In this document: positions 33,559 to 45,634 of the stretch, one piece after another | Position numbering within the stretch: the stretch's first letter is position 1 | Layout: the number at the start of each line of letters is the position of its first letter | Assembly: GCA_038087875.1 (NCBI GenBank) | Contig: CM075987.1 | Location: 25,298,001-25,362,000, forward strand | DNA from: Malacoraja senta | Lineage: Eukaryota | Direction: 5' to 3' | Length of the DNA: 64,000 nucleotides | Notes under the pieces: generated by a model | Database searches by the model: none | What the model was told of the DNA's origin: nothing | What the model saw: only the letters and a program-made list of their open reading frames with translations | Made by a program: the position numbers and the translations under genes

Positions 33559-33702
33559 CTTCTTCTTCTTCTTGTGTATGGCGTGTACAGCCTAAAGTTG
33601 TAGGACAACTTGTTCTATTTGATCTTACTTGAATGTGCACACCAGGTTGATTGCATCCGTCGAAACAGGGCGGACCACGTGAAGGTTGCAATCTCCCACC
33701 CC
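33559..33702 (-). mobile_element. Ribozyme-headed short retroposon (type A) with (GAA)n tail
   Basis: TSD ggacattggactt at 33546-33558 and 33705-33717; same 5' start as the copies at 40556 and 44672. Confidence 0.9.
33649..33702 (-). ncRNA. Minimal HDV-like ribozyme (54 nt)
   Basis: GGGGUGG-GA-GAUUGCA-ACC-UUCACGU-GGU-CCGCCCU-GU-UUCGA-CGGA-UGCAAUC. Confidence 0.85.
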
Positions 33703-34048
33703 ATGGACATTGGACTTTGTCTATGGAACTAAAGGTGGACACAAAAAGCTGGAGTAACTCAGCGGGTCAGGCTGCATCTCTGGAGAAAAGGAATGGGTGA
33801 CGTTTCGGGTTGAGACCCTTCGAGCTTATGCGCTACAATGCTGAGAACTATATTTTGCACCCTATATCTTTCCCTTTGCTCTATCCATTGTACTTGAGCT
33901 GGCGTGATTGTATTCACTTATGGTATTATCTGATCTACGTTAAAAGGAACTGCAGATGCTGGTTTCTACCGAAGATAGACACAAGTGCTGGAGTAACTCA
34001 GAGGGTCAGGCCGTATCTCAGGAGAAACAGGATGGGTGATGGGTGAGT

Positions 34049-34076
34049 CTGAAGAAGGGTCCCGACCCGAAACGTC
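34049..34076 (+). ncRNA. Minimal hammerhead motif in a Penelope-like pLTR
   Basis: CUGAAGA-A-GGGU(CCCG)ACCC-GAAA-CGUC. Confidence 0.65.
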
Positions 34077-37000
34077 ACCCATCCTTTTCCTCCAGAGATG
34101 CTGCCTGACCCGTTGAGTTACTCCAGCATTTTGTGCCTATCTTTGGTATTATCTGATCTGCTTGGGTAAATTTCAATGACTGGCTTTGCAGTTAAAATAC
34201 AACCATGTCAATCGAGATGACTGTCACTTGCGGGGTACAGGGGCAATGGGTGTGGAAAAAGTACAACCCATTGGTGATATTTCCACAAATTCTATAATTC
34301 AAATATCTTCCTTCAGCAAAAATATCCTCAACATGGCTTTGACTGCTCATTAGATGGTGTGCAAGCCCTTTCATTTTTCTGAACATATCTCAAAAGATTC
34401 TCTAAATTTTTTTCCATTCAGTAGGATCTGCAAGTCCAAGTCACCAGAGAAAGCTATGTCTTTTTATACTGCTGTCAGCTTACAGTATTTTCAATTGCCA
34501 ACTAATTTAAAGTTCCATGAATTCTCTGACCAAAGCCAAGTTCCATTCTAGTGAGCAAATCAATTCTTTGCACCGTTTTCTGCTGCGCTCCTAAATACAA
34601 TCCCATAATTACTGACTTGCAAATTAATAATTTTCTCTATCACACTAACCGCTCATTTTTATATTTATTATACATTTTATATTTATTATATTTTTATATT
34701 TAGTCGGAGGGTGGTGAATCTGTGGAATTCTTTGCAACAGAATGCTGTGGAGGCCATCAGAAGATATTTTTAAGGCAGAGATAGATAGATTCTTAATTAG
34801 TGCGGGTGTCAGAGGTTATGGGGAGAAGGCAGGAGAATGGGGTTAGGAGGGAGAAATAGATCAGCCAAGATTGAATGTTGTAGACTTGATGGGCCGAATG
34901 GCCTAATTCTACTCCTATTCCTGATGACCTTATGATTTGTATATTTTATATGTTTTATTACAGTCTATACACAAATTTAAAAAAAATCCAAAATTAGTTT
35001 TTGTCTTTGCATTTGGTATGAAGTTAGTATGTTATCGAACAATGTAAAGATACATTCACGACGGTTCAATCAAGAGACACAAGGAACTGCAAGATGCAGT
35101 TTGCAATACAAAACACACGAAAAACAAAGCGCTGGAGTAACGGGGTCAGGGTGGCACGGTGGCGCAGTGGTAGAGTCTATACAGGTGCTGTCTGTATAGA
35201 GTTTCTAAGTTCATCTACGTCGGTGTGGGCTAGTTGAGCCAAAGGGCCTGTTTCCATGTTGTATGAATTTATAATTCGAATAGCAGTCAGGATTGGTAAT
35301 TCTACCCTAGCCTTCACTGTTAAAGGTCTTGGGTTTTCTCCAGTGGCTCCAGTTTCCTCCCACGCTTCAAAGACGTACAGGTTTATAGGTTAATTGTCTT
35401 CCACAAAATTGTAATTTATCCCTAGTCTGTGCAGGATAGTGTTAGCGTGCGGGGATCGCTGGTCGGCGCGGACTCGGTTGGCCTAATCTCTAAACTAAAA
35501 CTAATCTGTAAAACTAAACTAAGCTCAATGGATCAAGCAGCATCTCTGGATGACATGGATCGGTGACATTTATCCAGCTCGGACACTTCTCCCGGTTTAG
35601 TCAGGGCCAGAAAATCTCTGTTATTTTCACAGCACTGTGTTTTTCAAAACAAATGTTGATTTTCCACCCACATTTAAAAGTGCACTCTCCTGCAGAAGTG
35701 ACTGAGATATGATGCTCTGCATCTCCATTCCTGGGAGCGCAGGAGGACGAAGGGTGTACAAAATCATGAGAGGAATAGATCGGGTCGACGCACAGAGTCT
35801 CTTGCCCAGAGTAGGGGATCGAGAACCAGAGGACACAGGTTTAAGGTGAGAGGGGGGAAAGATTTAATAGAACCCCGAGGGGTAACTTCTTTTTTACACA
35901 AAGGGTGTTGGGTGTATGGAACGAGCTGTCGGAGGAGGTAGTTGAGGTAGTACTAGGAAACAATTAGACAGGTGCATGGATAGGACAGGTTTTAGAGGGA
36001 TATTGGCCAAACGCAGGCAGGTGGGACCAGTGCAGATGGGACATGCTGGTCAGTGTGGGTAAGTTGGGCCAAAGAGCCTCTTTCCATGTGGTATGAGTCT
36101 ATAATTTGAATAGCAGATAGGATTGGTAATTCTACCCTAGCCTTCATTGTTAAAGGCCTTGGGAGGTGTGATATGGTGCTGAACACAGTTAAGTTGTTAC
36201 ACCTAGGGTGGTGCTTTGCGCATGACTGAGATGGATGTGGGCAACTTTCAATCTTTAATTGCCTAATTTATATACAGACCATTAAGGGCGGTGAATCTGT
36301 GGAATTCATTGCCACAGACGGCTGTGGAGGCCAAACGCTGGATATTTTTAAGGCGGAGATTGACGGATTCTTGATTAGTACGAGGTGTCAAGGGTTATGG
36401 GGAGAAGGCAGGAGAATAGGGTTGGCAGTAAAAGATGGATCAGCCACGATTGAATGGCGGTGTAGACTTGATGGGCCGAATGGCCTAATTCTGTTCCTGG
36501 GAATTATGAACTAAATACCCCAAAACAAGATTCATTACAGTGAGCGAAAACTACAAATAAAGTGAATTATTGAACCAGAAATCGGTTGCATTTCATAGCA
36601 GTAAACTAACCTCAAGGTGATGACCATTTTATTTAACTTGGCAACCAGTAGGCACTACATTTTTGTCAGGCAAACCTTTTGCTTCATTATCCAGTTCTTT
36701 GTTGCAATTGAAGTTTGCACACATTTTGCAGAGGTGGCAAGTTTTCCCAACCTTGCCTAATGTACATTCCGATTCCGATTTTAATTGAAGTACAGTACAT
36801 ACTTTACATAACAATCCCATGCTATTCCCATGGGTTGAATGCATTATATTGCCCTGCTTGTGTGGACCCAGTTCCTGGTAGTGAACGAGGCTTAATCACC
36901 TGGATAAAAATAAAGAATTAAACAAAGTTAATTAAATAGCATATAAATGTAGAACATGGGGATAGTGTAGGACAAGGTGTAATAAAATATGATCATTATG

Positions 37001-37789
37001 CTACTCAATCCAACTGTGAATAGTTATACCTGGTCTGAAATGCTAATTTAATCACCAACATGATTTAGAAAAATGATAGAAAAACATATTTTCCCAGCGA
37101 TGTCTTATGAAACGTGGGAAGAGGAAGAAATAAAAATAAGTAAGGACAAAGAAAACAATGAAAAATGAATGAGTGAAGGAAATTCAGAGAGAGAGAGAGG
37201 GGAAAGGTGGGGGAAGAGAAAGAGTGAGACACAAAGAACTGCAGATGATGATTTACAAAAAAAAACACACAAAGTGCTGGAGTTCCTCAGCGGGTGAGGC
37301 GGAATCTCTGGAGAACATGGATAGGTGACGTTTTGGGTCAGGGCCTTTCTTCGGAAAGAAGAAGATTCCCCAATCTGAATGTCACCTTCTGACAGCGCCA
37401 GAGAAGCGGGTTCGATCCTGACCTTGGGTGCAGTCTGTACGGAGTTTGTACTTTCTCCTCAAGACCTGCGTGGCTCCCCCCCCCCCCCCCCACCACAATC
37501 CAAAGACGTGCAGGTTTGTAGGCTAATTGGCTTCTGTAAATGATCCCTAGTGTGTAGAGTAGAACTAGTGAACATGGATCGCTGGTTGGCGCAGACTCGG
37601 CAGGCCAAAAGGCCCGTTTCCATCCTGTATCTCTAATCTCTAAACTAAACGAAACTAAGTTTGAAGATAAAGTCAAGTTTGGAAAACTGGAGTAACTGGA
37701 GCTGACTTTGCACGTTGATTTGAATTATACCCACAAGGGAAGCGTTGCTCCCTGTAAAACAGAAAGGTGGAGAGATCGAACTTTCATTC

Positions 37790-38940
37790 CATTTAGTATA
37801 TTGTCACGTGTACCGAGGTACAGTGAAAAGCTTTTGTTGAGTGATAACCAGTCAGCGGAAAGACAATACATGATTACAATCGAGCCATTCGCAGTGTACA
37901 GATACATGATAAGGGAATAACGTTCAGTGCAAGGTAACGCCAGTAAAGTCTGATCAAGGATAGTCCGAGGGTCACCAAAGAGGTGGATGAGCACTCAATA
38001 GTCCAGTAGTTCAGATTAGTGGTTCAGGACTGCTCTCTGGATCAGGGGCGGAAAACCCGGGGGTAGCCAGAGGGGACACGTCCCCCCCATGTTTCGAGAG
38101 GTGGGGACATCCCCCCCAAGTTTTTGTGATCCGTATTTTAAAATCTCCGCTTTCCGCGAGGCAGTGGGGGTTGGGACTGCTGATCGAGGGCGAGATGATT
38201 GGAGGAGGGAGGAGTGAGGTGTGTGGGGGGGGGGGGGGGTGGGACTGAGGATAGAGCGCGGCGATTGGAGGAGGGAGACGTGGCACAGACCTGCGCCTCA
38301 TCCGCAGGCAGGATCGATCCCGGCCGGGTCTCCGGCGCTGTCCCGAGTGCTCCCCCCCACCCCCCCCCACGGGTGGCCAGAGAGGTCGGGAGTCAGACAC
38401 GAGCTGTACCCCCAGGCCCACAGCCAGCGCAGAGAAGCAGCACTAAACCCAGCTCACTCTGCCTGTCCTGCCTGGGCTTGCGGGAAATATGGCCAGCGCG
38501 GAGAAGCAGCGCTGGTGTCCCGTCAGTCCAGTCAGGGCTGTAGTTAACCCGGTGAGACAGGCAGTGTTGAGCTGCATTTAGCGCTGGATTGAGCCTCCGA
38601 AGCCTCGCGCGCGCGTGTGTGTGAGCGGCCGCCAAAAAATGGTGTCCCCTGTCCCCTCCATGTTTTGATAGCGAGTTCCGCCCTTGCTCTGGTTATGGTT
38701 GGATGATTCCGTTGCCTGATAACAGCTGGGCGGAAGCTGTCCCTGATTCTGGAGGTGTGCGTATTCACACTTCTGTACCTTTTGCCCGATGGGAGAGGGG
38801 AGAAGAGGGAGTGGCCGGGGTGCGGCTCGTCCTTGATTATGCTGCTGGCCTGGCCGAGGCACCGCGAGGTATAAATGGAGTCAATAGAAGGGGGGGGGGG
38901 GGGGGGGGTTGGTTTTTTTGTGATGGTCTGGGCTGCAAGT
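37790..38940 (-). mobile_element. Rex1/Babar LINE 3' fragment interrupted by a hAT-like MITE
   Basis: AAQTIT..SIDSIYTSRCLGQASSIIKDEPHPGHSLFSPLPSGKRYRS on minus, plus the 3' UTR. Confidence 0.8.
38043..38686. mobile_element. hAT-like non-autonomous DNA transposon
   Basis: TIR caggggcggaa / ttccgcccttg; 8-bp TSD ctctggat (38035-38042) / ctctggtt (38687-38694); subterminal ggggaca/tgtcccc motifs. Confidence 0.8.
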
Positions 38941-40555
38941 TCTTGTGGTCTTGGATGGAGCAGTTCCCAAATCAAGCTGCAAGGCAATGCGATAAAATGC
39001 TTTGTACTGCACATCTGTAGAAGTGCGTCTATGCTCTCTATGGTGCCTCTTTTTGCACGATGTCCCGAACACTTTGTAGTCAGTCTAATACTTCTAAATT
39101 TATTCCCTGTTTTGATTCCAAAGCCCAGCAGCCAGCGAGTTCCCAAGGCTATTCACTGCTGTGATTGCTGAAAAAAAATTTGCCAAACAAACAACATTGC
39201 TAATGAGATTCCCCTGGTGCTCAAGCTGGCTTGGACACTGATTTCATTCTGTATTTAATAATTAGTACCCATGGTGATGCAATTATTACTTGGCGGTATC
39301 ATGCAGATTTCTTATTAAAATGATTTTTTTTTACTATTACGTGGAAGACTAGGAAGCACTGTGTTCCATTCTCTGGGCTCAATCAGTAAGTGGCTATCAG
39401 AGTTCATCATGAAATTCAGTTGGAGTGAATAGGGCTTCAGTACACTGTTAGGAATAAGAATGACTGATTATAACATTGCTACACTTTCTGAGACTATTAC
39501 TAGTCAACAAGCATTTCTTCCATTATCACCAAGAAAGCCCATAGAGTCATAGAGTGATACAGTGTGGAAACAGGCCCTTTGGCACAACTTGCCCACACAG
39601 ACCAAAATGTCCCATCGACACTAGTCCCACCTGCCTGCGTTTGCCCCATATCCCTCTAAACCTATCCGATCCATGTACCTGTCTAGATGCTTCTTAAATG
39701 CTGCGATTGTACGTACCTCAACTAACTCCTCCGGCAGCTCGTTCCAGACACCCACACCTCTACCACCTTAGAAGATTGAGGAGTCAACGAATACTCTTTT
39801 GAACTTCTACAGGTGTACAGTAGAGAACATATCGACTGGTTGCATCATGGCCTAGTTCGGCAAAACGGTCGCCCAGGAACGAAGAAGCTTGTAAAAAGTT
39901 GTGAACACTGCCCAGCCCATCACAGATACTGACCTCCCCACCATCGAAGGGATCTTTTATTTTTTTTCCCCCCAATATTTACATATCTGTTGTGCTGCTG
40001 CAAGTAAGAATTTAATTGTTCCGTGTGGCAATATGACAATCTGGTCTCTGAAAACCTCTGATGAAAATGTGCCTTTGCAAAAAAAAATGCAGAGAAGCAA
40101 AATATTTTGTTGACTGCATTTTAGATATTTCATTACCATTGATTGATCAATGGGTTTTTAGATGCAAGGGGAATCAGGGGATATCAGATAAGTGGCACAG
40201 AGGTAAAAGATCAGTCATAATCTTATTCAATGACAGAGCAACAACCCTTGCTTCCATTTCCTACATTCTTACCAACAAAGTGAAATATCACAGATGCAGG
40301 TGGCCCAGTGGCACATCATTAGAGTTGCTGCCTTACAGCGCCAGAGACCTGAGTTCAATCCTGGCTATGGGTGCTGTCTGCACGGAGTTTGTACGCTCTC
40401 CCCGCGACTTTTTCACTTTTTCACACAGAGAGTGAAAACACTTGTTCACACAGAGAGTTGTCAGTCTGCGGAATTCTCTGCCTCAGAGGGCGGTGGAGGC
40501 CGGTTCTCTGGATACTTTCAAGAGAGAGCTAGATAGGGCTCTCAAAGATAGCGGA

Positions 40556-40609
40556 GGGGTGGGAGATTGCAACCTTCACGTGGTTCACCCTGTTTTGACG
40601 AATGCAAAC
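40556..40609 (+). ncRNA. Minimal HDV-like ribozyme (54 nt)
   Basis: GGGGUGG-GA-GAUUGCA-ACC-UUCACGU-GGU-UCACCCU-GU-UUUGA-CGAA-UGCAAAC; putative catalytic C at 40599. Confidence 0.85.
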
Positions 40610-40689
40610 AACCTGGCGTGCACAAACGGAAGATCAAAGTTGTCTTACAACTTTAGGCTGTGCAAGCCATACGCAAGAAGAAGAAGAAG
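40556..40689 (+). mobile_element. Ribozyme-headed short retroposon (type A) with (GAA)n tail
   Basis: TSD aagatagcg(g/a)a at 40545-40555 and 40690-40700; inserted in a CR1 3' end. Confidence 0.9.
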
Positions 40690-41400
40690 AAGATAGCGAA
40701 GTCAGGGGATATGGGGAGAAGGCAGGAACGGGGTATTGATTGTGGATGATCAGCCATGATCACATTGAATGGCGGTGCTGGCTCGAAGGGCCGAATGGCC
40801 TACTCCTGCACCTATTATCTATTGACCTGCGTGGGTTTTCTCCGAGATCTTCGGTTTCCTCCCACACTCCAAAGACGTACAGGTTTGTAGGTTAATTGGC
40901 TTGGTATAAATATAAATTGTCCCTGGTGTGTGTAGGATAGTGTTAATGTGGGTGGATCGCTGGTTGGTACGGATTCGGTGGGCCGAAGGGCCTGTTTCCA
41001 CGCTGCATCTCTGAACTAAACTAAACTGAAATAAACTGAGATGCCTCCTAATTATATTAGTGTTGCTACATCATTGATGATGATCAAGTGATCAATGCAA
41101 ACAAATGTTGTCGGTCTCAAGGACGGATTGCATGGTTGAAATACTGTACAGTGTCTGTCCTAATTCACCGTTCCTAAACCATGTTGGTAAAATGTATGTG
41201 TAACCACAAATTACAGCAATCTCAGGCATTTCAGTTGAGAGATCCAGCTTCACAAGTTCATAAGTGATAGGAGCAGAATCAGGCCATTTGGCCCATCAAT
41301 TCTAATCTGCCATTCAATCATGGCTGATCTATCTCTCCCTTCTAACCTCATTCTCCTGCCTTCTCCCCATAACATTTGACACCTACTAACCAAGAATTTA

Positions 41401-42598
41401 TCCACCAATTTTCATCCTTTTCTCAAATTCACTTGGACCATCTCCGACACCTCCCTCCCCTTTCTTGATCTCACAGTCTCCATCACAGGAAATAGACTAT
41501 TGACTGACGTCTATTACAAAAGCACTGACTCCCACAACTATCTCGACTACACTTCTTCCCACCCTGCTTCCTGCAAAGACTCTATCCCCTACTCCCAATT
41601 CCTCCGTCTACGCCGCATCTGCTCCCAAGATGAGGTGTTCCATACCAGGACATCCGAGATGTCCTCATTCTTTAGGGAACGGGGGTTCTCCGCTCCCATC
41701 ATAGATGAGGCCCTCACTCGTGTCTCCTCGGTACCCCGCAGCTCCGCCCTTGCTCCCCCTCCCCCTAGTCGCAACAGAGACAGAGTCCCACTGAAACTCA
41801 CCTCCCGGCCCATCAGCCGTCGCTTACACCACACAATCCTCAGAAATTTATGCCATCTCCACCCCTTTCTGCCTTCCGCAGAGACCGTTCCCTCCGCAAC
41901 TCCCTGGTTAGCTCATCCCTTCCCACCCAAACCAATGCCGACAGTCCTTTCAGGATAGGCAGAGGTTCACTTGCACCTCCTCCAACCTCATCTACTGTAT
42001 CCGCTGTTCAAGATGTGGACTCTTATACATCGGTGAGACCAAACGCAGACTGGGCGATCCTTTCGCGGAACACCTTCGCTCAGCCCGCGTGAACCAACCT
42101 GATCTCCCAGTTGCTGGACACTTTCATTCTCCTTCCCATTCCTACACAGACCTTTCTGTCCTCGGTCTCCTCCATTGTCAGTGAGGTTAAACGCAAATTG
42201 GAGGAACAGCATCTCATATTTCGCTTGGGCAGCTTACAGCCCAGTGGTATGAATATTGAATTCTCTCATTTCAGGTAGCCCCGGCATTCCCTCTCTCTCT
42301 CTCTCTATCCCTCCCTCCCCAACATCGCACTATTCTCATTTTCACCCTACAAACAGCTAACAATGGCCTGTTTCCTTTATCATCATTACTGTTTTGCAAG
42401 TCTTTCATTCATTGTTCTTTATCTCTACTTCATCATCTATATCTCTCGTTTCCCTTATCCCTAACCAGTCTGAAGCAGAGTCTTGACCCGAAAAGTCACC
42501 CATTCCTTCTCTCTAGAGATGCTGCCTGTCCTGCTGAGTTACTCCAGCTTTTTGTGTCTATCTTCGGTTTAAACCAGCATCTGCAGTTCCTTCTTACA
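41401..42598 (+). mobile_element. Penelope-like retroelement, 5'-truncated (RT C-terminus + GIY-YIG, frameshifted) with pLTR
   Basis: NFHP..KFTW..LPFLD, YYKSTDSHNYLDYTSSHP, SNLIYCIRCSRCGLLYIGETKRRL; TSD-like caagaat(t/c)tatc. Confidence 0.9.
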
Positions 42599-44671
42599 CA
42601 AGAATCTATCTGTCTCTGCCTTAAAAATATCCATTGACTTGGCCTCCACAGCCTTCTGTGGCAATGAATTTCATAGACTCACCACCTTCTGACTAGAGCA
42701 ATTCCTCCTCATCACCTTCCTAAAGGAACATCCTTTAATTCCACTTCCAGGAAAACAATAAATACATTTACCTGAATGATTCAGTGTCACAATGATGGAT
42801 TTCTGCCATGTTATAAACCTCCATGTGATTATCCAAGGGTTTACACTTTCAGTTCAATCATTTTACGTAATGACAATTGTGAGTTCCCTTTTAATGCAGA
42901 AAACTGAAGATAATTTGGAGTGACGGAATCCAAATTGAATTGAATCTGTTCCAAAAACAGCGATCAGAATGCATTAATTCACTGGCAGGGCCCATTGCCA
43001 TAATCTAATAATGCATAATCCATGACAGAGGCGGCATGATTGCAAAGCTGCTGTTGACCAGAGGGTCGCTCAGTACTTCACTAAGACACGATTAAAAGAG
43101 CAGGCATTCAGTCAAACTGCACTTTGTTTAGTTGGAGCAAAGAGCCACAGATGCTGGTTCATACCAAAGATAGACACGGAGTGCTGGAGTAACTCTGCTG
43201 GTCAGGCAGCATCTCCTGAGATAAAGGAATGGGTGACGTTTCGGGTCGGGAACCTTCTGCACACACTTTGTTTAGTTTTAGTTAGACGTATGGCATGGAA
43301 ACATACTGTACGGAGCCTACAGTATGGAGCATCAAAACATGCCCTTTGGCCCTCCAAGTCTGCGTCGACCATCGAATGCCCTTCACACTGATTCCATGTT
43401 ATCCCATCCACTCTCCACACACTATGTATTTAATATACAAAGGCCAATTAACCTACAAACACACACGTCCTTGGGATGTGGGAGGAAACCGGAGCACCCG
43501 GAGGAAAACCATAACATCACAGGGAGAATGTACGAAAACGCTGTACAGACAGCACCCGTAGTCAGGATCGAACCCCGGCCCCTGGCGCTGTAAGGCACCA
43601 AATCTACCTCCCCACCACAGAGCCAAAGGAGACTTTGACCTTCCCCAACTTTTGTACTCCGAATTCAAACTCCACACGGACGGCACCCGAAGGTCAGGAT
43701 CAAACCATCTACCAGCTGTGCCACTTTCAAAAACAGCATATAAGTTGAGAGGAGCAAAGATGTACGGGAACGTATTTTTTTTACGGAAGTTGGTGGGTGC
43801 CTGGAACGTGCTGCCAGAGATGGTGGTGGAGGTAGGTACCATAGTGGTGCTTAGGTGGCTTTTCGATAAGCACGTGGACATGCAGGGAATGGTGGGATTC
43901 GGATCATGCAGGGAGATGGGATTAGTTCATCTTGCCATCATGGTCAGCATAGAGGTTGTGGGCCGAAGGGCCTGTTCCTCTGTTTTATTCTTCTATGTCC
44001 CATGTTTTAATCCTAAAACAAAAGTGCAACACATCACTGTCATTGATTATAATTTTATTCCAGTAGTGTTCTTGATTGCAAAGATGTTCAATCAGTTTGC
44101 AATTGATAAGCAAAACTGGAATTGTACTTCAATGATAAGGAGTTACTGTCTGGTCACATATATATTACAATACAGAAACATATCATTACAATCAATCCAC
44201 AGAAACTTCTCGGCCTACACGGTAGGCTTATTATTTAAACTCGTATTTATATAAACAATTCTGTACTCAGACTACTGTGCAATCAAAGCAATTTGTGATT
44301 TCCACAACACCGGTACAATCGCTCATGTTTACAGTGGAAACAAGCCGGCAATGGCGGCAGTGCTTACCCAGAAAGCCGTGCGCCGCAGAAAGTGCCCCAT
44401 TGGTGAGATGGGGGGAACCCAAGTTTACAAGTAGATAGACACAAAATGCTGGAGTAACTCAGCGGGACAGGTAGCATCTCTGGAGAGAAGGAATGGGTGA
44501 CATTCCGGGTCGAGACCCTTCTTCAGACTAGTCAAGGGAAAGGGAAACGAGAGATACAGATGGAGATGCAGAGAGATAAAGAACAATGAATGAAAGATAT
44601 GCAAAATGGTAATGATGATAAAGGAAACAGGCCGTTGTTAGCTGTTTGCTGGGTGAGAACAAGAAGCTGGT

Positions 44672-44725
44672 GGGGTGGGAGATTGAAACCTTCACGTGGT
44701 CCACCCTGTTTCGACTAATGCAATC
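44672..44725 (+). ncRNA. Minimal HDV-like ribozyme (54 nt)
   Basis: GGGGUGG-GA-GAUUGAA-ACC-UUCACGU-GGU-CCACCCU-GU-UUCGA-CUAA-UGCAAUC. Confidence 0.85.
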
Positions 44726-44807
44726 AACCTGGCGCGCACAAACAGAAGATCAAACAGAACAAGTTGTCCTACAACTTTAGGCTGTGCACGCCACACGCAA
44801 GAAGAAG
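44672..44807 (+). mobile_element. Ribozyme-headed short retroposon (type A) with (GAA)n tail
   Basis: TSD aagaagctggt at 44661-44671 and 44808-44818; inserted in a Penelope-like 3' region. Confidence 0.9.
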
Positions 44808-45634
44808 AAGAAGCTGGTGCGACTTGTGTGGGGGAGGGATGGAGAGAGAGGGAATGCCGGGTTACTTGAAGTTAGAGTGCCTGTGTTGTTTGCTCATGCA
44901 CACCTTCCACGGGCACATCTACTCCAGTTACTTTCACTTGCATCACTCTCCACCCAACCCTCCTCCTCATGGTGCGGCAGAGTTGCTCCCTCACAGCGCC
45001 AGAGACCCGGGTTCGATCCTGACGATGGGTGCTGTCTTCACGGAGTTTGTACGTTCTCCCTGTGACCTCATGGGTTTTCTCCAGGTTTCCTTGTTTCCTC
45101 CCACACTCCGCACAGATAAGTACCCGTAGTCAGGATCGAACCTGGGTCTCTGGCGCTGTAAGGCAGACAACTCTACCGCTGCGCCATCGTACTTACTTCA
45201 GCAACCAGAGGAAGCCAAACCTATTACCTGATCCTGTCAAAATGTTGCATTTTGCATTGCGATTTCCAGGCATAGCAAAATTAATTTTTCAAGTCTTTAT
45301 TCACACAGGCATTGCCTTATTTGTAGAGCAGATAGCTTGCCACTAAATACGTATTGCACTTGTATCAATAGTCTTCTTTCAATTCTTCATAAATGTTCTA
45401 ATTGCTATTATTAAGATTTATATTTGGTTACCGTGACTTTCCTATTCTATATGGCGGTGCTAAATCCTTAAAATCCATTCCCCTTGTCTGTTTAAACAAT
45501 CTTATCAATTAAAAATTACTAAAATATATCCTTCGGTTCGTTGAGAACATTGCAATCTCTCAGCTTCAGGAAGGCACTGATAGAAGTTCATTCGGAATGA
45601 TGCTCCTCGACTGGTGTTTATTTCAAGAAGGCCT

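Follow-up and report, generated by a model that had tools for sequence, protein, structure and literature searches.

A 64,000-nt stretch of the Malacoraja senta genome (GCA_038087875.1, contig CM075987.1, positions 25,298,001 to 25,362,000 of the forward strand; here called the window) contains a short repeated element that begins with a 54-nt ribozyme fold of the hepatitis delta virus (HDV) type. The whole of the observations is best explained, and in our judgement probably explained, by a non-autonomous retrotransposon of the kind without long terminal repeats (non-LTR) that is headed by a ribozyme and probably mobilised in trans by a long interspersed nuclear element (LINE). An earlier reading of the same sequence, made without database searches (the original prediction), had proposed a 54-nt HDV-like ribozyme lacking helix P4. 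Such a fold was found at the exact 5' end of a retroposed element, with HDV-type ribozymes as its top Rfam matches and with compensatory changes in its helices.

An HDV-like ribozyme fold without P4

The predicted fold is a nested double pseudoknot in which P1 and P3 are nested, P2 crosses them and P1.1 links L3 to J1/4 (Table 1). In place of the 24-nt P4 hairpin carried by a LINE from this genome, the element has five bases (UUCGA). The remaining fold is intact, and the closing pair of P4 is retained as U-A in the element, compared with C-G in the LINE. The 7-bp P1 with its G1-U wobble, the P3 pairing ACC/GGU, the UUCGA remnant and the CUAA strand of J4/2 were all present in the sequence as originally described, and the originally proposed likeness of L3 and J1/4 to the CPEB3 ribozyme holds against the Rfam CPEB3 consensus. 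A catalytic role has been reported for C57 of the CPEB3 ribozyme, in the residue numbering of that report (PMC4836649). In the alignment of another copy (L084), the candidate catalytic cytosine of the element falls on the C of the CPEB3 model's CGAA.

A consensus was derived from 40 copies, taken in listing order from the matches to a 22-nt pattern of the ribozyme core. All helices are complete in this consensus (P1 7/7, P2 7/7 and P3 3/3 pairs). The single P2 mismatch noted originally does exist in the window copy and is absent from the family: reads carry C instead of A at 44686 in 217/228 and 154/161 cases, as does the 40-copy consensus, so the mismatch is private and the consensus P2 comprises seven Watson-Crick pairs out of seven. 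The P2 duplex amounts to -3.7 kcal/mol with the private A and -7.4 kcal/mol with the consensus base. The window copy has one further private change, C for T at 44735.

Frequent variants within the ribozyme occurred only at positions 8, 32, 42 and 45 of the 40 copies, with positions 16-37 fixed by the way copies were selected and variation there uninformative. Position 8 (J1/2) is either G or A, and position 42 belongs to a CpG in the P4 remnant. Position 32 in P1 is G or A, giving a U-G or a U-A pair, so that pairing is kept in both forms. Position 45, directly after the candidate catalytic C, is G, U or A; the J4/2 strands CGAA and CUAA that arise from this variation both occur in Rfam consensus lines.

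Rfam matches and covariation

Three 74-nt stretches containing the ribozyme were scanned against all 4,227 Rfam models. The two best matches were the CPEB3 ribozyme and HDV-F-prausnitzii in all three copies; each spanned the full length of its model on the right strand (scores in Table 1). G1 coincided with position 1 of the model P1 in the CPEB3 alignment of the window copy and in each of the three F. prausnitzii alignments. P2 is not modelled as pairs in either the CPEB3 or the F. prausnitzii model, yet it is fully Watson-Crick paired in the consensus. These ribozyme matches appeared only for the 74-nt stretches, where filters are laxer. A scan of the whole window at the gathering threshold returned nothing, and a 351-nt scan with E values up to 10 returned no HDV family.

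Covariation was assessed in an alignment of nine sequences: four from the element, two from the LINE, one from a third ribozyme type and two from a second short element (all described below). With the caveat that the nine rows were hand-chosen, that members of one family are not independent and that the structure was derived from the same sequences, 97.4% of cells formed a standard pair, pseudoknots included, compared to 76.3% in shuffles (0/500 reached the observed value). Thirteen of the 26 pairs were changed on both sides (three in P1, five in P2, two in P3 and three in P4), a number reached by 4/500 shuffles. Sliding the structure by 1-3 columns left 33-48% of cells paired and at most two pairs changed on both sides. 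G1 stands opposite U36 in all seven sequences with a letter at column 1, and the C22-G37 pair is invariant across the nine. As judged from these sequence comparisons, the HDV-like fold of the element is well supported, and the putative ribozyme is a P4-deleted member of this genome's HDV-like class.

Copy number and hallmarks of retroposition

The 22-nt core pattern had 4,763 matches in the 1.94-Gb genome, a lower bound on the number of element copies, and none for the reversed control. A BLAST first look gave 1,919 candidates; of these, 40 were scored, all with 96-100% identity across essentially the entire 136 nt. Contigs of three other organisms and raw reads of a fourth also contained the element, showing the same frequent variants.

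The window copy interrupts a different abundant repeat. In other copies of this host repeat, as represented by reads and contigs, 44661 is followed immediately by 44809; the joint leaves out 147 nt, and 11 letters at it fit either side. As these host-repeat copies are uninterrupted, the joint is the signature of an empty site and a target-site duplication; the exact 11-bp duplication of the original prediction was thereby confirmed by both the sequence and the empty-site joints. Duplications of at least 7 bp (range 7-17 bp) were detected in 34/43 copies. Among these 34, the insertion junction lies at G1 (offset 0 or +1) in 21 and within -3 to +2 in 29. The duplications frequently start with A, AG, AAG or GAA, in match to the tail, and 5'-truncated copies with unrelated upstream flanks were found. 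Target-site duplications, a 3' repeat tail, 5' truncations and the lack of a reading frame are together the hallmarks of a non-autonomous non-LTR retrotransposon.

No tRNA was detected by ARAGORN in 44500-45100, and Rfam scans of the window and of element stretches gave no match to tRNA, 7SL or 5S. The tRNA, 7SL or 5S head and internal polymerase III promoter of a classical short interspersed nuclear element (SINE) were thus not seen in sequence scans. By this reading, the element is SINE-like in size, with no polymerase III promoter head detected.

Several side observations concern how copies are placed. The flanks of the window copy (44571-44660 and 44820-44877) belong to a different high-copy repeat, itself abundant among the RNA-type contigs from several organisms, and many element copies elsewhere are likewise embedded in pieces of common repeats. 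Three copies lie inside an 11-kb part of the window (33559-44808), compared to a genome-wide mean of about one core-pattern match per 400 kb; a 36-nt part of the 5' region occurs three times in the window and in none of 100 shuffles. A joint from 44810 back to 44670 (141 nt, tail to head) was seen in a single contig. This weak observation could reflect two elements in tandem, or else an RNA in circular or concatemeric form. At two loci (L119 and L120) and at least two further places (upstream TTTCT), about 170-230 nt of a different abundant repeat interrupt the element, at one shared point immediately ahead of the hairpin. Recurrence of this junction points to either a retroposed composite or an insertion hot spot. 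Three loci (L022, L039 and L026) are ribozyme-only fragments without the 3' module, two of them bordered by unusually long direct repeats of about 20-25 nt.

The 3' module

Downstream of the ribozyme, folding gives a structured module followed by the tail (Table 1). The hairpin at 44761-44777 is exactly as originally described. The outer stem, first drawn as 10 bp (44731-44740 with 44783-44792), also exists, and it extends by one pair further (44730/44793); as the consensus has T at 44735, the stem is paired at 11/11 positions in the family. Among the 40 copies the module has 9-10 frequent variants, which lie in loops, in linkers and in the long stem's outer three pairs. No frequent variation is seen in the 8-bp stem core or in the 7-bp hairpin. 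This placement is compatible with structural constraint, though it is not covariation. A control scan of the module (87 nt) against Rfam returned noise only (E ≥8.8), with no Rfam family and no ribozyme. Minimum-free-energy folding of the whole element gave a z-score of -0.9, which is uninformative because pseudoknots are not modelled.

Table 1. Features of the element, its ribozyme fold and related copies, with window coordinates, the 40-copy consensus and Rfam scores.
Feature	Position	Strand	Window sequence or detail	Consensus
Short element, one copy	44672-44808	+	136-nt insertion; begins with the HDV-like fold, ends in GAA repeat
Target-site duplication, left copy	44662-44672	+	AGAAGCTGGTG; 11 bp; last G ambiguous with element G1
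Target-site duplication, right copy	44809-44819	+	AGAAGCTGGTG; 11 bp
HDV-like P4-less ribozyme fold	44672-44725	+	54 nt; predicted cut 5' of 44672
P1	44672-44678 with 44701-44707	+	GGGGTGG with CCACCCT; 7/7 pairs; G1 opposite T44707	GGGGUGG (5' strand), CCGCCCU (3' strand)
J1/2	44679-80	+		GA
P2	44681-87 with 44719-25	+	GATTGAA with TGCAATC; one mismatch	GAUUGCA (5' strand), UGCAAUC (3' strand)
Private C-to-A change	44686	+	breaks one P2 pair	C
P3	44688-90 with 44698-700	+	ACC with GGT	ACC (5' strand), GGU (3' strand)
L3	44691-97	+	TTCACGT	UUCACGU
J1/4	44708-09	+	GT	GU
P4 remnant	44710-14	+	TTCGA	UUCGA
J4/2	44715-18	+	CTAA	CGAA
Candidate catalytic cytosine	44715	+	first base of J4/2 (C44); matches C57 of CPEB3; invariant alignment column
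Linker, ribozyme to 3' module	44726-44729	+
Structured 3' module	44730-44793	+	outer stem, A-rich internal loop, hairpin; by folding
Outer stem	44730-44740 with 44783-44793	+	C-A mismatch 44735/44788 in window copy
Hairpin	44761-67 / loop CCT / 44771-77	+	aagttgt-cct-acaactt
Pre-tail and tail	44794-44808	+	ACACGC, then (AAG)n
Second window copy	40556-40689	+	duplication AAGATAGCG at 40545-53 and 40690-98; internal 10-nt deletion; (AAG)n tail
Third window copy, majority subfamily	33559-33702	-	duplication AAGTCCAATGTCC at 33717-05 and 33558-46; (AAG)n tail
Rfam scan, window copy	44662-44735		CPEB3 20.6 bits (E 8.1e-4); HDV-F-prausnitzii 15.1 bits
Rfam scan, second window copy	40546-40619		CPEB3 14.3 bits; HDV-F-prausnitzii 15.0 bits
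Rfam scan, further copy	locus L084		CPEB3 13.0 bits; HDV-F-prausnitzii 14.4 bits

Related ribozyme families in the same genome

The whole genome was searched with the CPEB3 model, and 59 of about 102,000 first-look candidates were scored. Thirty-nine of the 59 exceeded 35 bits, with a best score of 64.2 bits. Seventeen of these matches were inspected in sequence and fell into four groups. The top matches (L121-L124; 52-64 bits) are the 5' ends of a LINE. They are 73-nt ribozymes with the 24-nt P4 hairpin, and a reading frame that opens with an AP-endonuclease domain starts about 30 nt downstream of the last ribozyme base. The second short element, likewise lacking P4 (L127, L128, L130-L136; about 170 nt), ends in an (AAG)n tail, and its duplications measure 10-12 bp. 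Its P2 is GGAAAGA/UCUUUCC and its hairpin is GTTCAGC-TCTG-GCTGAAC; its P1 seemingly has one G fewer, and the G-U pair at the cut may be absent as a result. The third ribozyme type (L125, L137, L138; 51-60 bits) sits on another element and has a long P4, CAAGUUCCAUGUAUGCUCCAUGUAACUUG, with CUAA in J4/2. The last group is a solitary locus (L126, C10:9303888-9303957) of 47.7 bits with P2, P4 and J4/2 near the CPEB3 consensus, a compensated P2 and a broken 5' strand of P1. A CEBP_ZZ profile search found no such exon on the contig of this locus, and there is thus nothing to assign it to a CPEB gene. The types differ in their helices but all have L3 UUCACGU (decayed copies show single-base variants of it), J1/4 GU and a J4/2 of C-N-A-A.

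A candidate partner LINE

One copy of the LINE was read from end to end (L122, L139 and L129; contig C1, ~217,550,496-217,553,635, about 3.14 kb). It starts with the ribozyme, the first two G's of which are changed in this copy. A 157-amino acid stretch with an Exo_endo_phos domain (E 5.8e-8) follows, and the same frame continues open for 743 amino acids with an RVT_1 domain (E 1.8e-32). The copy ends in ...CAAAGACACGAAAAGAAGAAGAAG, followed by an 11-bp duplication, ACAGAACAAAA. As a side observation, an in-frame TGA (L129 ~98-103) falls inside a C-terminal LNRLRT motif and upstream of a C-x-C...H...C motif, after which the frame is open into the (AAG)n tail. LINEs of the RTE clade are about 3.2 kb long and encode endonuclease then reverse transcriptase in a single frame; their 3' untranslated region is very short and they end in a short repeat tail. 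The architecture of the LINE found here, as predicted from its sequence, looks like that of this clade.

A 33-nt stretch of the LINE 3' end had 214 genomic matches with at most three mismatches. All of the 100 matches listed were exact, so the family is young. For five of nine LINE-type ribozyme matches, a LINE 3' end follows on that strand at a distance of about 3.1 kb downstream. Features common to element and LINE are the ribozyme class, the repeat tail and duplication size, and the sequence ACACG(A/C)AA before the tail: the LINE ends in ...ACACGAAA(AGA)n and element subfamily C in ACACGAAAGAAG. Comparison of the element with LINE 5' and 3' pieces by blastn-short returned the tail only, and local alignment of the last 187 nt of the LINE with 3' modules was significant only through the tail. 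Of the earlier suggestions on mobilisation, an RTE-type partner was borne out in part, by a LINE of fitting architecture that has an (AAG)n tail and a ribozyme and does not share the stem-loop. The expectation of a LINE sharing the 3' stem-loop was not borne out by the LINE found, whose 3' end shares only ACACG(A/C)AA and the repeat tail.

Proposed mobilisation and alternative readings

In the mechanism we propose, copies of the element would be transcribed passively within host or read-through transcripts. The 54-nt ribozyme would then cut just upstream of G1 and in this way give the RNA its 5' end; cleavage is predicted because of the fold and of where insertions begin. The endonuclease and reverse transcriptase of a LINE, presumably acting in trans, would nick the target and prime on the (AAG)n tail, and copying of the RNA to its 5' end would leave a duplication of 7-17 bp. 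The duplications, tails and 5' truncations of this step are observed directly. The likeliest supplier of the enzyme would be the young 3.1-kb RTE-like LINE of the same genome, which offers a frame with LINE endonuclease and reverse transcriptase, the same tail, an 11-bp duplication, a full-size ribozyme and identical unpaired core strands. The ribozyme of the element would accordingly represent a natural P4-deleted version of the LINE ribozyme class.

A number of results weigh against this explanation. About 201 polyA RNA-seq reads continue from 44671/44672 into unlike upstream sequence, indicating that the predicted cut is crossed in various copies. In one polyA RNA-seq run, no position, G1 included, passed a test for many read starts or ends; this test is weak because most copies carry ribozyme mutations, because polyA selection favours uncut RNAs and because the threshold was a fifth of the local depth. 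Scores of 13-20.6 bits with the CPEB3 model are below the RF00622 gathering score of 35, those of 14.4-15.1 bits with HDV-F-prausnitzii are below the RF02682 gathering score of 44, and the best value of 20.6 bits comes in part from a chance match of the upstream flank. Regarding the partner, nothing else is shared by element and LINE beyond the single-stranded ribozyme core, ACACG(A/C)AA and the tail. The shared 3' end beats shuffles for subfamily C only (3/300 shuffles as high). Because the two have different P1, P2 and P3 sequences, simple internal deletion of the LINE does not account for the element. The 3' stem-loop is absent from the LINE found. The only LINE copy examined end to end has its in-frame TGA about 33 amino acids beyond the 743, near the C-terminus.

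Crossing of the site by reads, the lack of a start pile-up at G1 and the low Rfam scores could also be expected if the 5' fold were an inactive relic of the ribozyme of a LINE ancestor, crippled by the loss of P4. The G1 end would then be set otherwise, via transcription initiation or as the end of the ancestor, and the helices would persist only through the youth of the family; copies are just 3-4% diverged, so conservation among them is little informative. We consider this reading unlikely. The subfamily consensuses differ at 9-10 places in the 3' module, whereas the differences within the ribozyme keep pairing or vary in known ribozymes. A second, independent P4-less family has different helices and the same core, and P4-less HDV-like ribozymes that cleave are on record (10.1101/2023.06.13.544163). 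Initiation at a tRNA-, 7SL- or 5S-type head finds no counterpart in the negative ARAGORN and Rfam scans described above. Far less credible, to the point of being negligible, is the idea that a repeat of other origin resembles an HDV-like ribozyme by chance. Topology alone is cheap: a scan of the window with a loose HDV topology descriptor was dropped, as it matched the reversed control often too. Against chance stand the two HDV-type ribozymes as best Rfam matches in three copies, the covariation across four families, the start of the fold exactly at the insertion boundary and the 64 bits of the related LINE ribozyme.

The identity of the partner leaves more room for doubt. Many LINE clades recognise a 3' stem-loop, and the one found in the element is missing from our LINE. 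A different LINE carrying the 11-bp stem and the AAGTTGT-CCT-ACAACTT hairpin might therefore mobilise the element, with the RTE-like LINE a coincidence; about 160,000 first-look reverse-transcriptase candidates exist in the genome, of which 150 were scored. Such a LINE was sought with six genome pattern searches. Four combined the stem-loop or the terminal 22 nt with non-element upstream context (two exact, two with up to three mismatches), the fifth placed the outer stem and hairpin behind non-element context, and the sixth placed non-element context after the ribozyme core. No other LINE carrier emerged from the six. They returned indel variants of the element, truncated or interrupted copies and one composite (L119, L120), which was the only case of recurrent foreign upstream sequence. 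Likewise, the top 30 RVT_1 loci showed no similarity to the element and no GAA runs. Since no LINE found shares the stem-loop, its role in reverse-transcriptase recognition remains putative. In view of these searches, and of the tail, duplication size and ribozyme class that the LINE found does share, we regard a different partner as possible but not the expected outcome. Mobilisation of a ribozyme-headed element by the RTE-like LINE thus remains the reading we prefer.

Comparison with known systems

HDV-like ribozymes are reported to head the non-LTR retrotransposons R2, R4/Dong, RTE, Baggins and L1Tc, where the ribozyme lies at the very 5' end, the cut marks the 5' junction and the promoterless elements are co-transcribed (PMC6765202, PMC3774820). 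The LINE found here directly fits this R2/R4/RTE/Baggins/L1Tc pattern. The element differs from such LINEs in being non-coding and 136 nt long, with a ribozyme that has no P4. Short derivatives are also described: R2 SIDEs and NARTc lack a reading frame and keep the 5' ribozyme together with a 3' end usable by the parent (PMC3414825, PMC6765202, PMC3383444). These are internal deletions that share both ends with their parent, whereas the helices and 3' module of the element are unlike the LINE found, and its two ends are not collinear with that LINE as those of an internally deleted derivative would be. The insertions of the element are dispersed and do not lie in ribosomal DNA, with a copy number in the thousands.

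P4-less HDV-like ribozymes of similar size have been described from metagenomes and, as theta ribozymes, from gut phages. They adjoin tRNAs, and their origin and function are presented as open in that report (10.1101/2023.06.13.544163). The ribozyme of the element, by comparison, lies in a eukaryotic genome and heads a retrotransposon. A literature search found no P4-less form heading a high-copy eukaryotic element and no retrotransposon ribozymes passing the CPEB3 threshold; both negatives are weak, as key primary papers fall outside its coverage. The element would add a natural 54-nt P4-less ribozyme in a eukaryotic chromosome with a clear job, namely the predicted 5' processing. The four related ribozyme families in one genome provide natural covariation data and a candidate pair of LINE and short element.

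Among the closest known systems is the mammalian CPEB3 ribozyme (RF00622). L3 UUCACGU and J1/4 GU are identical, and the main subfamily also has an identical J4/2 CGAA; G1 and L3 are equally far apart, and P1 begins with GGGG and has G1 opposite U. Unlike the CPEB3 ribozyme, the element lacks P4, has a different P2 and P3, and occurs as a dispersed repeat, not at one intronic locus. CEBP_ZZ exons were found on contigs C2259, C2128, C15 and C17, with none beside the window (C11). The RF00622 threshold is reached by the LINE ribozyme of the same genome (up to 64.2 bits) and not by the element. The likeness of the element to CPEB3 may reflect common descent or shared constraint. The bacterial F. 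prausnitzii model has a nearly identical P3-L3 motif; the likeness can therefore be explained by shared constraint, and caution on descent is due.

Descent of the mammalian CPEB3 ribozyme from this retrotransposon ribozyme lineage is a speculative proposal, which we think improbable at present. It is raised because the LINE ribozyme reaches up to 64 bits, nearly twice the gathering score, in an active-looking LINE, and because two short derivatives independently shed P4 and at least one solitary, decayed locus (L126) resembles the CPEB3 consensus in P2 and P4. If the proposal were true, the element would show how far the fold can shrink in a successful promoter-less mobile element. The strong CPEB3-model matches in a retrotransposon make the origin of the CPEB3 ribozyme testable by phylogeny.

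A further comparison is with SINEs, some of which are reported to use HDV-like ribozymes (PMC6765202). SINEs mobilised by RTE elements are described as having a short repeat tail and duplications whose start tends to match the tail, suggesting priming by base-pairing (PMC6007223). The duplications of our element often begin with tail-matching A, AG, AAG or GAA in the same way. Classical SINEs have a tRNA, 7SL or 5S head and tens of bases of a LINE 3' end, neither of which was found for the element. A high-copy short element that apparently needs no promoter of its own represents an alternative to the polymerase III heads of SINEs.

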